A stretch of DNA of 64,000 nucleotides from Terriglobia bacterium. Lineage in GTDB: Bacteria; Acidobacteriota; Terriglobia; 20CM-2-55-15. The stretch is from positions 619,983 through 683,982 of the forward strand of contig CBDCKF010000001.1 of NCBI GenBank assembly GCA_965218085.1. Reading direction: 5' to 3'. The position numbers and the translations under genes are program-made. Shown here one piece after another: positions 21,774 to 63,093 of the stretch. The notes below the pieces were generated by a model that ran no database searches, was not told the origin of the DNA, and saw only the letters and a list, made by a program, of their open reading frames with translations. Every line of letters starts with the position of its first letter. Within the stretch, counting starts at the first letter, position 1.

Positions 21774-22193
21774 ATGACAACCAAACTCTTGACGTCTTTG
21801 GCGCTAGTTGCAGGTTTCTCAATGATGGGTAGTCCTGCGCTCGCACACCACGGAACTGGTATATCGTACGACCTCACGACCCTCCCCATCACGGCGAAGG
21901 CGACCGTGACGGAATTCCATTGGACCAATCCCCATCTCGGAATCTTTGTTGACATAGAGGACAACGAGGGCAACGTAGAAAATTGGTCTATCGAAGGTAG
22001 CAGTCCGGGACGAATGACCAGGGCGGGATGGACCAGGTATACGCTCAAACCTGGGGACGAAGTCACCATTACTTTCTACCGTTCCAAAATACAGGCTGCG
22101 CGTGCCGGAGTTGTCGCTAAGGTCATCCTTGATGGCCAAGAAGTGTTGCGGTTTCAGCGGGATGAGCCCCGTACCGAAGGCGGGCGCAGATAA
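21774..22193 (+). CDS. Small secreted N-terminal-His protein, subtype 2 (mature N-terminus predicted HHGTG; NPH motif), copy 1
   Basis: Signal peptide ending ALA|HHGTG; VTEFHWTNPH motif; AGGAG RBS. Paralogous to 36916-37317. Confidence 0.6.
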   Translation: MTTKLLTSLALVAGFSMMGSPALAHHGTGISYDLTTLPITAKATVTEFHWTNPHLGIFVDIEDNEGNVENWSIEGSSPGRMTRAGWTRYTLKPGDEVTITFYRSKIQAARAGVVAKVILDGQEVLRFQRDEPRTEGGRR

Positions 22194-22253
22194 CATGGGA
22201 TGGCGCAGTCAAGGACAAAACGGTGAGGAATCGCTCACATAAAGGAGTTTTAA

Positions 22254-23093
22254 ATGCGAAACCGCTTCATGAGTTTGACCGTCGCATTGGTGGCCATACA
22301 GGTCTGCTCGTTGGTCACGCACGCTCAGGCGCAAGCGCCGGAGACCGCCGACAGCGCCGCATATGATCGAGGCGATCTCTCTGGAGTATGGATTCTGTCC
22401 GGTGGAGACCGTGGTGTCAACGCGCTGGTTCCTGCTATGACGGCTGAAGGGGAGGCGAGATTCAACACCAACAAGCCCTCTTACGGACGCCCGTTGGGAA
22501 GCCCGCTTAGGGAGGGGGAACACATCGGCCGAGTCAGAGCTGTCCCCCCTGCGCTTGGAAATTCCATGGTTGGAGAGTGCAATCCGCTAGGCGTGCCACG
22601 CATCTATTATGATGCTGAACCATGGGAGTTCATTCAGACCCCTGGCCGGCTACTGCAGTTTTTCTCGTGGACGCGACCATTGCGCGAAATCTGGATGGAC
22701 GGACGGGACATTCCCGAGGATTGGTCTTTCTTCACTCCGACGTGGTACGGATACAATGTTGGCAGGTGGGAGGCGGACACCTTCGTCGTTGACTCCTTCG
22801 GTTACGACGAAAGATCCTGGCTCGATCATTTTGGTTATCCGCATAGCGAAGAAATTCGGATACAGGAGCGCTTCCAGCGCGTGGGCGCGGAAACGCTGGA
22901 ACTCAATATGACCATCCACGACCCAAGGACGTATACGACGCCTTGGGTAGCTGAAACGAAGACCTTCTCGCGGGTAGCGAGAGAGTCGTTGACCTCCAAT
23001 GGGTGGTACGGGTTTCTAGAGGAACTATGCGTACCCCTTTATGAGTCAAGGTTTAACGATAGAGTCAGGGATCCGGCCGGCTTGACCCCCTAA
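22254..23093 (+). CDS. Family-A secreted partner protein (~280 aa), copy A1
   Basis: Signal peptide; shares ...VDS/TVG...W...HSE/D..I.ER..R...T..L..TI.DP..YT.PW with the A2/A3 copies. Lies immediately downstream of the subtype-2 small gene. Confidence 0.6.
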   Translation: MRNRFMSLTVALVAIQVCSLVTHAQAQAPETADSAAYDRGDLSGVWILSGGDRGVNALVPAMTAEGEARFNTNKPSYGRPLGSPLREGEHIGRVRAVPPALGNSMVGECNPLGVPRIYYDAEPWEFIQTPGRLLQFFSWTRPLREIWMDGRDIPEDWSFFTPTWYGYNVGRWEADTFVVDSFGYDERSWLDHFGYPHSEEIRIQERFQRVGAETLELNMTIHDPRTYTTPWVAETKTFSRVARESLTSNGWYGFLEELCVPLYESRFNDRVRDPAGLTP

Positions 23094-23217
23094 CGGAGGC
23101 TTCAAGTACCCGTGAGACACCATACCGTGCACATTTCGGGAGAGAAACGAGTGCGCGTCACAGCAATGCCTTGATCTCTAGCTCGAACTGTTCCTTGGAG
23201 GCGAAGCCGGTATGTTG

Positions 23218-23381
23218 GGTTCAGATCTTACCGTCGCGAGCAATGATGAACGTCGTCGGAAAACCGTAGAGGGGTCCGAAAGCCTCTTTGACATCGTCGC
23301 GGCCGTCACCGATGAGCACCGGGTGTACGTCGTCAGAATAATTCGGACAAAAGCGCCGTTTTGCTAAGAGACAGTTTTGAA
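23218..23381 (-). pseudogene. C-terminal fragment of a TlpA/ResA-like thiol-disulfide oxidoreductase (thioredoxin fold), directly abutting the 3' end of the group II intron
   Basis: ...FCPNYSDDVHPVLIGDGRDDVKEAFGPLYGFPTTFIIARDGKI* matches the TlpA family C-terminus (GxPTTFlIdrdGkI). No CxxC-containing N-terminal part was found nearby. Confidence 0.4.
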
Positions 23382-61876: not shown

Positions 61877-61919
61877 ATCAGGGATATTTTGTATCACGAG
61901 GATCACGAGGGGGATAAGC

Positions 61920-62327
61920 ATGCGTCTGAAACTGGTTTTGGGATTCAGCATAACTAGTGTGGCAGTATTGACGCTGTCGGCGTGGGGACACCATGCCCAC
62001 GGCAACTACGCAGCGGAAATGGTGGACATGGAAGGGATCGTGACAGAGTTGTATTTGCTCAACCCGCATTCGTGGCTGTACTTCGAGGTCACGAAAGCCG
62101 ATGGACAGAGACAGCTGTGGGGGTTGGAGGCGGCGAGCAAGGGCCAGCTCGGGGCCAACGGCGTTTCGCACGAGTACATCAAGCCTGGAGATAGAGTAAA
62201 GGTGCGATGCCATCCGCTGACAGACGGCGGTCCCGGCTGTTTAGCTGGGTTTGTGAGAAAGATGTCGGATGGAAGCGTTAAAGATTGGGATCTGAGTATA
62301 ACCGAATACGTTCCTGAAGACTTCTGA
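61920..62327 (+). CDS. Small secreted N-terminal-His protein, subtype 1, copy 4
   Basis: Signal ...SAWG|HHAHGNYAAEMVDMEGIVTELYLLNPHSW...RCHPLTDGGPGCL. The start is 35 bp downstream of the IS right TSD. Confidence 0.65.
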   Translation: MRLKLVLGFSITSVAVLTLSAWGHHAHGNYAAEMVDMEGIVTELYLLNPHSWLYFEVTKADGQRQLWGLEAASKGQLGANGVSHEYIKPGDRVKVRCHPLTDGGPGCLAGFVRKMSDGSVKDWDLSITEYVPEDF

Positions 62328-62343
62328 GGCTGGAGGGGAATAC

Positions 62344-63093
62344 ATGAAACCGAAAGTTTTGATTGCGATGACGACGATCGCGCTTCTGATGTCGGCATCG
62401 GGCGCTTCATTCGCCCAGGAATGGGCTCCGTATCTCAGTGAGGTCGATCACTTCAGTGCCAATTTTCCTGGCGATCCGGAAGTGAAAGAGATCACCTGGG
62501 AAACTGAATACGGCGCCGTGCTGCCGGCTCGGGTCTATGCGGCGAAGCAAGGTCCGAACACTTACTCCTTAACGGTGGTCGATTACAATCCGGTCGAAGA
62601 GATACTTACGCAGAAATCGAAGGACTGCCCCCCGAATCTCGAACGCTGCGACGGATTGACCGCGTACAGCGGAGCGGGGTACTGGAAGAATGATGTGCGC
62701 GGCGCGATGCTGTACGCGACATCGAAGTTCCTGAAACGCGACAACATCAAGGTGACTCACTATATGTGGAGCCATCTCGGCCAGGGTGTGGAAGTCCATG
62801 AACTCCAGTTGACAAATAACCCCGATCGGTCGCGGACATTCGTGGCTGTCTACATGCACCACAATCGACTCTATGTCGCGGAAGGGACCCACCCTGAGAA
62901 CTACCCGCCGCCGGGAATATTTCAGCAGTCCATATCTCTGCTCCACGCCGAAGGGGAACCGGAACGTCATAACGGTGTGTACTTCAATAGCGCTGAGCTC
63001 GACCCGGACGAAGTCTTCGAAGGTCAGGAGCTTATTCGTCGAGAGCGTGAGCGTATTCGTCAATTTCAAGAGCAAGAGCGTAGTCGTAGGTAG
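62344..63093 (+). CDS. Family-B secreted partner protein, copy B4
   Basis: MKPKVLIAMTTIALLMSASGASFAQEW... All family-B motifs. Follows the small gene by 16 nt. Confidence 0.65.
   Translation: MKPKVLIAMTTIALLMSASGASFAQEWAPYLSEVDHFSANFPGDPEVKEITWETEYGAVLPARVYAAKQGPNTYSLTVVDYNPVEEILTQKSKDCPPNLERCDGLTAYSGAGYWKNDVRGAMLYATSKFLKRDNIKVTHYMWSHLGQGVEVHELQLTNNPDRSRTFVAVYMHHNRLYVAEGTHPENYPPPGIFQQSISLLHAEGEPERHNGVYFNSAELDPDEVFEGQELIRRERERIRQFQEQERSRR

Follow-up and report, generated by a model that had tools for sequence, protein, structure and literature searches.

In a 64,000-nucleotide stretch of the genome of a Terriglobia bacterium (Acidobacteriota; contig CBDCKF010000001.1), hereafter the window, we identified six intact genes for small secreted proteins of the DUF6152 family, each paired with a gene for a larger secreted protein belonging to one of two further families, termed A and B. 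Comparison with loci from other genomes and from metagenomes shows that a DUF6152 protein, modelled as an oligonucleotide/oligosaccharide-binding (OB) fold, and a subtype-specific partner together constitute a conserved and widespread two-gene periplasmic module. The six copies in the window arose through segmental duplication and divergence within a mobile-element-rich island downstream of a tRNA gene. We tentatively read the module as a periplasmic metal or redox system built on an N-terminal His site and equipped with subtype-specific docking partners.

DUF6152 proteins and their partners in the window

From the listing of open reading frames (ORFs) and their translations, six intact small genes (S1 to S6) and two remnants were located between 21.7 and 63.1 kb (Table 1). 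The copies scanned against Pfam, namely S1, S2, S4 and S6, matched PF19649 (DUF6152) at 83, 64.7, 92.3 and 71.9 bits, respectively, over positions 2-95 of the 98-position model and against a gathering threshold of 27 bits. These are therefore true members of the family, to which Pfam assigns no function, and S3 and S5 align with them end to end. A family hidden Markov model (HMM), built from an alignment that already included the six window copies, matched all six with E values from 1e-37 to 1e-63, and tblastn searches of the window with each copy recovered every copy as well as both remnants. No NCBIfam model was matched by the small proteins. Among the invariant positions of the six-way alignment are a His-His pair (HH) straight after the signal peptide, an NPH motif and a Trp. 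An RCH...C pair defines subtype 1 (S2, S3, S5 and S6) and is lacking from subtype 2 (S1 and S4).

Also identified were four copies of family B (B1 to B4), mutually 46-69% identical, and, by tblastn, three full copies of family A (A1 to A3) together with several fragments. All three families carry Sec-type signal peptides. Family A possesses one conserved disulfide-capable Cys pair, and family B is distinguished by its own conserved motifs, DCPPGLERC, GYWKNDVRGA, YMHHNRLY and NYPPPG. A2 and A3 share 88% identity at the protein level and 91% at the DNA level; A1, although matched by the A profile at E 9e-70, reaches only about 38% identity to either over 95 aa. Closer inspection of the ORF at 35723-36901 (-) revealed a chimera, in which an 86-aa C-terminal A fragment lies in frame with a complete A2 including its own signal peptide, and an identical 392-aa chimeric gene was called in the independent contig L094.

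Pairing within the window is strict, the four copies with the Cys pair occurring with B and the two copies without it occurring with A. At the B loci the small gene precedes B twice, precedes B with a metallo-beta-lactamase-fold (MBL) gene in between once, and follows B once (S3, with B2 upstream). S2 lies 6 nt upstream of B1, S1 and A1 are separated by 60 nt, and S4 is located between A3 and A2. Gaps within pairs range from 6 to 176 nt, the locus with the intervening MBL gene excepted, which fits co-transcription.

Much of this arrangement had been proposed in an earlier sequence-only reading of the window. The six intact small genes, now established by ORF listing, alignment and HMM searches, lie where that reading placed them, and the succession of signal peptide and HH, the NPH block, the Cys pair of subtype 1, the secretion of all three families and the strict pairing are exactly as it described. 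Its account of gene order held for the single B-to-small locus and the single locus with an intervening MBL gene, but the small-to-B order occurs at two loci and not three, because the window contains only four B genes. The one remnant that it placed at about 25700-26010 is real, at 25796-25945 (-), and is now joined by a second at 32342-32491 (-).

Conservation of the pairing in other genomes

To describe B-type loci, one genome per species was scanned with subtype 1 patterns, yielding 257 relatives, mostly from Vicinamibacterales and other Acidobacteriota with some from Gammaproteobacteria and Rhodospirillaceae; 79 loci, no two of the same species, were kept. In 75 of these 79 a family B gene and a DUF6152 gene are no more than 400 nt apart, usually in the order B then small gene on one strand. 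A metagenome scan with the A profile recovered at least 577 relatives, and a DUF6152 gene adjoins A in 29 of the 38 metagenome loci in which A is flanked by 550 nt or more on each side; individual look-ups agree.

Subtype and partner were found to co-vary almost perfectly. Among non-redundant genes of subtype 1, B is the neighbour in 72 cases, A or both in none, and no partner was seen for 10; for subtype 2 the corresponding counts are 4 with B, 56 with A, 1 with both and 3 with no partner seen. Since the two sets of loci were retrieved differently the margins of this comparison are biased, and the near-absence of cross-pairs is still informative.

A-type pairs also occur on plasmids of cultured bacteria. 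A Croceibacterium atlanticum plasmid encodes DUF6152 twice, followed by A and a TonB-dependent receptor, and a Novosphingobium humi plasmid encodes A, then DUF6152, then a TetR regulator; in RefSeq, the A partner on plasmids of cultured Sphingomonadales carries the label "hypothetical protein". Large proteins with G8 and beta-helix domains flank the DUF6152-A-receptor cluster of C. atlanticum (NZ_CP011453.2, locus L175, 4028-14369), and another G8/beta-helix protein stands beside an A-type cassette in a soil metagenome contig (L096, 3839-5875).

Family sizes and database matches

Neither A nor B matched any Pfam or NCBIfam model at E<=1, and family B gave no match to the PsbP-type superfamily models of NCBIfam. 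When 37 A and 38 B members were scanned individually against Pfam at E<=10, only scattered chance matches came up. Searches of PDB sequences with single sequences and profiles of the small, A and B families found nothing significant, nor did a broad 82-member A profile. When the A and B profiles were compared with each other only the signal peptides aligned (probability 5%), so the two families are not detectably related.

DUF6152 has more than 2,500 relatives; family B has 441, named "hypothetical protein" where a name exists and none with a Pfam domain; and A3 has more than 7,000 homologues, again none with a Pfam domain. An exhaustive HMMER scan for family A returned 16,409 clusters at 50% identity (E<=1e-3), or 8,590 at E<=1e-10. 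No natural fusion of a small protein to A was found among 149 A representatives. Literature searches found no paper mentioning DUF6152 or PF19649, none linking the histidine brace to the OB-fold, and nothing related on PsbP-like proteins and TonB; no source searched deals with the pairing of the partners, with the two subtypes or with a His-His reading of the N-terminus.

The sequence-only reading had assigned none of the three families to a characterised family, which stands for A and B; the small protein belongs to DUF6152, itself of unassigned function. The broader proposal of that reading, that a two-component extracytoplasmic system is functional here and has undergone duplication and diversification, is supported, as the families do not map to characterised, functionally unrelated Pfam families and the adjacency of small protein and partner is kept in other genomes.

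Predicted folds and a putative N-terminal metal site

The model of S6 (predicted local distance difference test score, pLDDT, 86.7) shows a barrel of five strands in which a helix lies between the third and the fourth, such that the small protein is predicted to have the closed five-stranded beta-barrel that defines the OB-fold. In this model the NPH His occupies the loop between strands 1 and 2, and the RCH and second Cys of subtype 1 flank the beta4-beta5 hairpin; judging from fold topology, both elements would lie on the face with which OB-folds usually bind. B4 was modelled with a PsbP/Mog1-like fold. Its top fold matches are PsbP proteins, with further matches to LpqN, MTC28 and Mog1 and more distant ones to TplEi and Tsi3, immunity proteins of type VI secretion systems, and the predicted structure has the alpha-beta-alpha sandwich common to PsbP, Mog1, DcrB and LpqN. 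Although family B thus appears to share a PsbP-like fold with the PsbP/CyanoP, Mog1, DcrB and LpqN superfamily, it differs in that none of 38 members matched a Pfam PsbP or DcrB profile at E<=10, in its own motifs, and in its obligate DUF6152 neighbour.

Residue conservation was assessed over 162 DUF6152 ORFs drawn from the window and about 170 other loci. In all 162, HH directly follows an AxA/AxG-type signal-peptidase motif at the cleavage site predicted from sequence, and Pro occupies position -1 of the predicted site in S5. The mature protein comprises about 110 residues, among which H1, H2, the PH of the loop between strands 1 and 2 (L12), one Tyr, one Trp and several Gly are at least 90% conserved in both subtypes. 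Subtype 1 begins with HHSHGN in 69 of 82 unique sequences (the consensus extending to HHSHGNY) and further conserves His4, the His of an E.HL motif and the RCH...GC motif; subtype 2 begins with HHS[F/E]A or similar.

A set of three conserved His residues, of which a free N-terminus carries two, is a classic signature of metal sites, known from CopC, lytic polysaccharide monooxygenases (LPMOs) and PmoB. On the reading that we tentatively adopt, the free N-terminal amine, the imidazoles of His1 and His2 and the loop His would form a histidine-brace-like metal site, to which subtype 1 would add three conserved His and a Cys pair at the beta4-beta5 hairpin, on the canonical OB binding face. The partner would act as a non-catalytic docking or specificity subunit in complex with the small protein, linking it to different clients, and the module would capture, redox-cycle or hand over a periplasmic metal ion, copper or zinc being the likeliest.

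Histidine-brace and N-terminal-His copper proteins (LPMOs, CopC, the PmoB CuB site, X325/Bim1 and YcnI) are likewise secreted with His as the first mature residue, as predicted here, and the DUF6152 sequence would also offer a second conserved His and an aromatic residue for a three-nitrogen site. However, those proteins adopt Ig-like, fibronectin-III-like or cupredoxin-like beta-sandwiches and DUF6152 a modelled OB-fold, the His2 of DUF6152 is also invariant, and the two groups have no sequence relationship; on account of the fold, DUF6152 is not a member of any known histidine-brace family. With CusF, the periplasmic Cu(I)/Ag(I) metallochaperone, DUF6152 would share a small periplasmic OB-fold and metal carriage with a partner, whereas no sequence or close structural similarity to CusF or to its His/Met/Met/Trp site was found.

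Gene neighbourhoods and alternative functions

The genomic context of the cassettes differs between the two partner families. In the window, a TonB-dependent-transporter-like outer membrane protein (OMP) heads a gene string that continues with a secreted 415-aa protein, A3, S4 and A2. The 415-aa protein, which matched nothing in Pfam or NCBIfam, is probably part of the same operon as the OMP and A3, and the arrangement of these three genes is identical in L094. Among other loci, a transporter with CarboxypepD_reg and OMP_b-brl_4 domains lies within 2.5 kb of 21 of 80 A-type metagenome loci versus 3 of 79 B-type loci. A dihaem c-type cytochrome is encoded directly upstream of B and the small gene in 50 of 79 B-type loci; in 37 of the 79 a BNR-like propeller, scoring below the Pfam threshold, is also upstream, and in 12 a MoxJ-like binding protein fused to cytochrome c, scoring above the TIGR03871 cut-off, lies downstream. 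CytoC_RC-like cytochromes adjoin some A-type cassettes. One such case is a further divergent cassette about 3.3 kb past the 3' end of the window in near-identical contigs (L177, 13078-15807), in which an A-like gene (322 aa) is followed by DUF6152 (165 aa, HHGSSISYD) and a CytoC_RC-like cytochrome (382 aa). A truncated MerR/SoxR-like regulator gene comes after this cytochrome in L177.

MBL-fold genes recur beside the cassettes, three times in the window and also in L007, L073, L083 and L114. Two of the three in the window are lipoprotein paralogues (lipoboxes LAAC and MAAC) in which an inserted segment contains two EF-hand-like loops, DANGNGEIEMSE and DANEDGMLSGGE; in NCBIfam they most resemble, at scores below cut-off, the SoxH-related "quinoprotein relay system zinc metallohydrolases". 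Fusions of an A-like domain to an MBL fold, 594-641 aa in length, were identified just upstream of B and DUF6152 in genomes of Vicinamibacterales and other Acidobacteriota (L041, 845-2788; L058, 962-2743; L078, 954-2738; L085, 1619-2830). Because of these neighbours, A-type cassettes, lying beside TonB-dependent outer-membrane transporters, may belong to the uptake side, and B-type cassettes, behind a dihaem cytochrome c and next to binuclear-metal MBL-fold hydrolases, may serve electron transfer or metal delivery. MbnP/MbnH and comparable copper-acquisition pairs of the periplasm are likewise encoded beside TonB-dependent transporters and have haem-protein partners. A-type cassettes share this transporter-linked genomic logic, although A, B and the small protein match no MbnP or MbnH model in NCBIfam or Pfam at E<=1.

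The same neighbourhoods also admit an unlikely alternative without a metal, a substrate-handling accessory to nutrient uptake and catabolism, in which the OB-fold protein and its partner would bind an organic compound imported by a TonB-dependent transporter (candidates being an aromatic, a lactone or a glycan fragment) and present it to periplasmic hydrolases of the MBL fold, with the conserved His residues serving as ligand-binding or catalytic groups and not as metal ligands. The OMPs beside 21 of 80 A-type loci fit such a role, as do the catabolic genes found near cassettes, which include intradiol and extradiol dioxygenases, dienelactone hydrolase, cupin, amidohydrolase, HpcH aldolase, aldehyde dehydrogenase and SnoaL-like proteins; moreover, OB and PsbP/DcrB/LpqN-like folds are generic scaffolds for binding ligands or proteins, and family A has no invariant His. 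Yet this catabolic set changes from locus to locus, B-type loci are rarely near transporters and usually sit behind a c-type cytochrome, and a universal His-His mature N-terminus with a loop His is typical of a metal site and unusual for an organic ligand.

The cytochromes bear on a second alternative, that DUF6152 is itself a catalytic redox enzyme, a copper histidine-brace oxidase or monooxygenase on an OB-fold with LPMO-like chemistry, reduced by the co-encoded c-type cytochrome and using A or B as a substrate-binding surface. We consider this quite improbable. The His that follows the predicted cleavage site in 162 of 162 ORFs, the conserved second His and Tyr, the dihaem cytochromes upstream of most B loci and the multihaem cytochromes beside A-type cassettes would agree with it, but no known histidine-brace enzyme has a fold like the predicted one, there is no evident substrate, none of the six cassettes of the window has an adjacent cytochrome, and an invariant His2 is not a feature of LPMO sites. 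The proposal that DUF6152 represents a new structural class of histidine-brace-like metalloprotein on an OB-fold, in obligate complex with A or B and exchanging electrons with c-type cytochromes, is unlikely. It would imply a copper/redox or metal-relay system of the periplasm that had so far gone unrecognised, common among soil Acidobacteriota and Proteobacteria and in many cases connected to MBL-fold enzymes and TonB-dependent transporters.

Several observations also weigh against the metal or redox module that we favour. The N-terminal arm bearing HH is poorly modelled (pLDDT about 65 for residues 21-30), and the spatial convergence of the N-terminal His pair with the loop His is predicted from OB-fold topology only. 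Family A lacks an invariant His, and nothing points to a metal site shared with the partner. The link to cytochromes is drawn largely from a single order, Vicinamibacterales, and may in part be a matter of inherited synteny, and the many catabolic-enzyme neighbours fit a role with organic substrates equally well. Finally, the window yielded neither a metal-responsive regulator nor a riboswitch; an Rfam scan of it detected the tRNA and a group II intron domain only, with no riboswitch or metal-sensing RNA.

Amplification in a mobile-element-rich island

The first 14,000 nucleotides of the window hold housekeeping genes (topA, trmFO, xerC, obg, a nadD-like gene and polA; 48-12902). The tRNA gene marks the boundary between this block and a region rich in mobile elements that contains all of the cassettes, a layout typical of a genomic island. 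Beyond the tRNA lie a group II intron, an IS4-family transposase gene and a further transposase fragment. The IS4 insertion is polymorphic, since contig L177, 99.9% identical on both sides, lacks it and has S5-MBL-B3 and S6-B4 directly in tandem; contig L178 carries two different transposase genes at the same site.

Self-comparison of the window by blastn revealed layered duplication, with copies 65-91% identical to one another: DNA identity is 91% for A2 and A3, 84% for the two EF-hand MBL genes (26232-27428 versus 55829-56898), 76.5% for B1 and B3, 73% for S2 and S5, and 65-71% for older copies. The EF-hand MBL paralogues, B1 with S2, and S5 with B3 belong to one segmental duplication. The independent contig L094 is 99.93% identical over window positions 27494-43163 and has different flanks. 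Chance or an assembly artefact was rejected as a source of the repeated cassettes in view of near-identical arrangements in the independent assemblies L094, L177 and L178; because these contigs share copies and yet differ in flanks or insertions, the amplification is real and the island plastic.

Decay is evident among the copies. The group II intron directly adjoins the truncated DUF6152 remnant 1, which lacks a signal peptide and the HH pair and is terminated by a stop codon on its intron-facing side. Its interpretation as an intron-split functional gene was rejected because no 3' exon was found beyond the intron, and it is treated as a pseudogene. Decayed A fragments also lie just upstream of the outer-membrane transporter gene.

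Amplification within such an island might suggest protective or inhibitory pairs, in which B would be a periplasmic immunity-type protein with a Tsi3/TplEi-like fold and the island an orphan immunity array, or the small protein an inhibitor resembling the tissue inhibitors of metalloproteinases (TIMPs), its N-terminal His residues plugging the metal centre of metallo-hydrolases, those of the MBL fold or others. TIMPs likewise have an OB-fold, and chelate the catalytic zinc through their N-terminal residue; MBL genes, moreover, recur beside the cassettes. Even taken jointly the two variants are very unlikely, and a toxin-immunity reading is ranked low: unlike the periplasmic immunity proteins of type VI secretion systems, B has no adjacent effector or secretion-system genes, and none stands beside the cassettes, whether in the window or at the other loci inspected; the proteins are 50-60% identical between Acidobacteriota and Gammaproteobacteria and keep a stable synteny with cytochrome c, which is not usual for fast-evolving immunity genes; and B finds its best fold matches among PsbP proteins and not among immunity proteins.

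Table 1. Features of the window, in order of position (aa, amino acids; HMM, hidden Markov model; MBL, metallo-beta-lactamase)
Feature	Position	Strand	Description	Evidence
tRNA gene	14305-14377	+		Rfam scan
S1	21774-22193	+	DUF6152, subtype 2-like, 139 aa, mature N-terminus HHGTGISYD	Pfam PF19649 E 1.6e-23; alignment
A1	22254-23093	+	divergent family A, 279 aa, Sec signal peptide	family A HMM E 9e-70
Group II intron	23459-25390	-	reverse transcriptase/maturase at 23459-24733	Rfam group-II-D1D4-3 at 25212-25390, 64 bits
DUF6152 remnant 1	25796-25945	-	pseudogene	70% identical to S4 over 50 aa (tblastn)
EF-hand MBL lipoprotein	26232-27428	-	MBL-fold hydrolase with EF-hand-like loops	Pfam Lactamase_B and EF-hand; lipobox visible
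B1	28274-28996	-	family B, 240 aa	family B HMM E 2e-115; L094 gene call also 240 aa
S2	29048-29431	-	DUF6152, subtype 1, 127 aa, HHAHGQYD, RCHPLRDGAPGC	Pfam PF19649 E 8.7e-18; alignment
DUF6152 remnant 2	32342-32491	-	subtype 1, C-terminal part	39-40% identical over 41-45 aa (tblastn); HMM E 2e-08
S3	33103-33528	-	DUF6152, subtype 1, 141 aa; longest ORF extends to 33615	family HMM E 3.5e-63; alignment; start set by homologue P0121 and L094 gene call
B2	33655-34389	-	family B, 244 aa	family B HMM E 1.4e-98; L094 gene call
Short A fragment	34786-34922	+	C-terminal, inverted	82-90% identical over 21-22 aa (tblastn); 85% (blastn)
A2	35723-36613	-	full family A copy	family A HMM E 3.8e-173
A fragment	36644-36901	-	C-terminal 86 aa	78% identical to A3 residues 217-302 (tblastn); second HMM domain
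S4	36916-37317	-	DUF6152, subtype 2, 133 aa, HHSSWAQFD	Pfam PF19649 E 2.1e-26
A3	37494-38399	-	family A, 301 aa, Sec signal peptide	identical to P0241
Secreted 415-aa protein	38491-39738	-	between OMP and A3	signal peptide visible
OMP	39825-43148	-	TonB-dependent-transporter-like	CarboxypepD_reg and OMP_b-brl_4, Pfam E 6.6e-174
Decayed A fragments	43485-43888	-	two frames	45-57% identical over 28-75 aa (tblastn)
Second EF-hand MBL lipoprotein	55858-56898	+	MBL-fold hydrolase, paralogue of 26232-27428	Pfam; blastn
S5	58278-58679	+	DUF6152, subtype 1, 133 aa, HHAHGNYD, RCHASKDGTPTC	family HMM E 1.3e-56; alignment
MBL-fold protein	58737-59504	+	membrane-anchored, between S5 and B3	Pfam Lactamase_B E 1.5e-18
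B3	59719-60432	+	family B, 237 aa	family B HMM E 1e-120; DNA identity to B1
IS4-family transposase gene	60568-61782	-	between B3 and S6	insertion 60552-61876
S6	61920-62327	+	DUF6152, subtype 1, 135 aa	sequence used for OB-fold model
B4	62344-63093	+	family B, 249 aa	sequence used for PsbP/Mog1-like model

Other genes were also noted among the cassettes. HbpS-like/GlcG-type (haem-degrading-like) genes at 30404-31015 (-) and 57116-57607 (+) each lie near a subtype 1 cassette, SnoaL-like genes are found at 31703-32218 and 35056-35505, and a small luciferase-domain gene at 29611-29943. At 44988-47302 (+) a GRDB-like fragment, a 232-aa unassigned protein and a DUF3179 protein occur together; a similar weak GRDB match and an unknown gene were seen near cassettes in the Terriglobia contig L001.

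Implications

The three families have no match to a characterised family or solved structure, yet are abundant in soil bacteria. Their strict pairing, the His-His N-terminus and the cytochrome, transporter and MBL neighbours yield a concrete proposal for a DUF, a periplasmic metal or redox module. The cultured Novosphingobium and Croceibacterium strains with a plasmid-borne A-type pair provide a possible experimental route. If the proposal is true, an OB-fold member would join the short list of N-terminal-His metal sites, and a large family of unannotated periplasmic proteins would gain a role. It would also help to explain how Acidobacteriota, with their huge transporter repertoires, handle what these transporters bring in.

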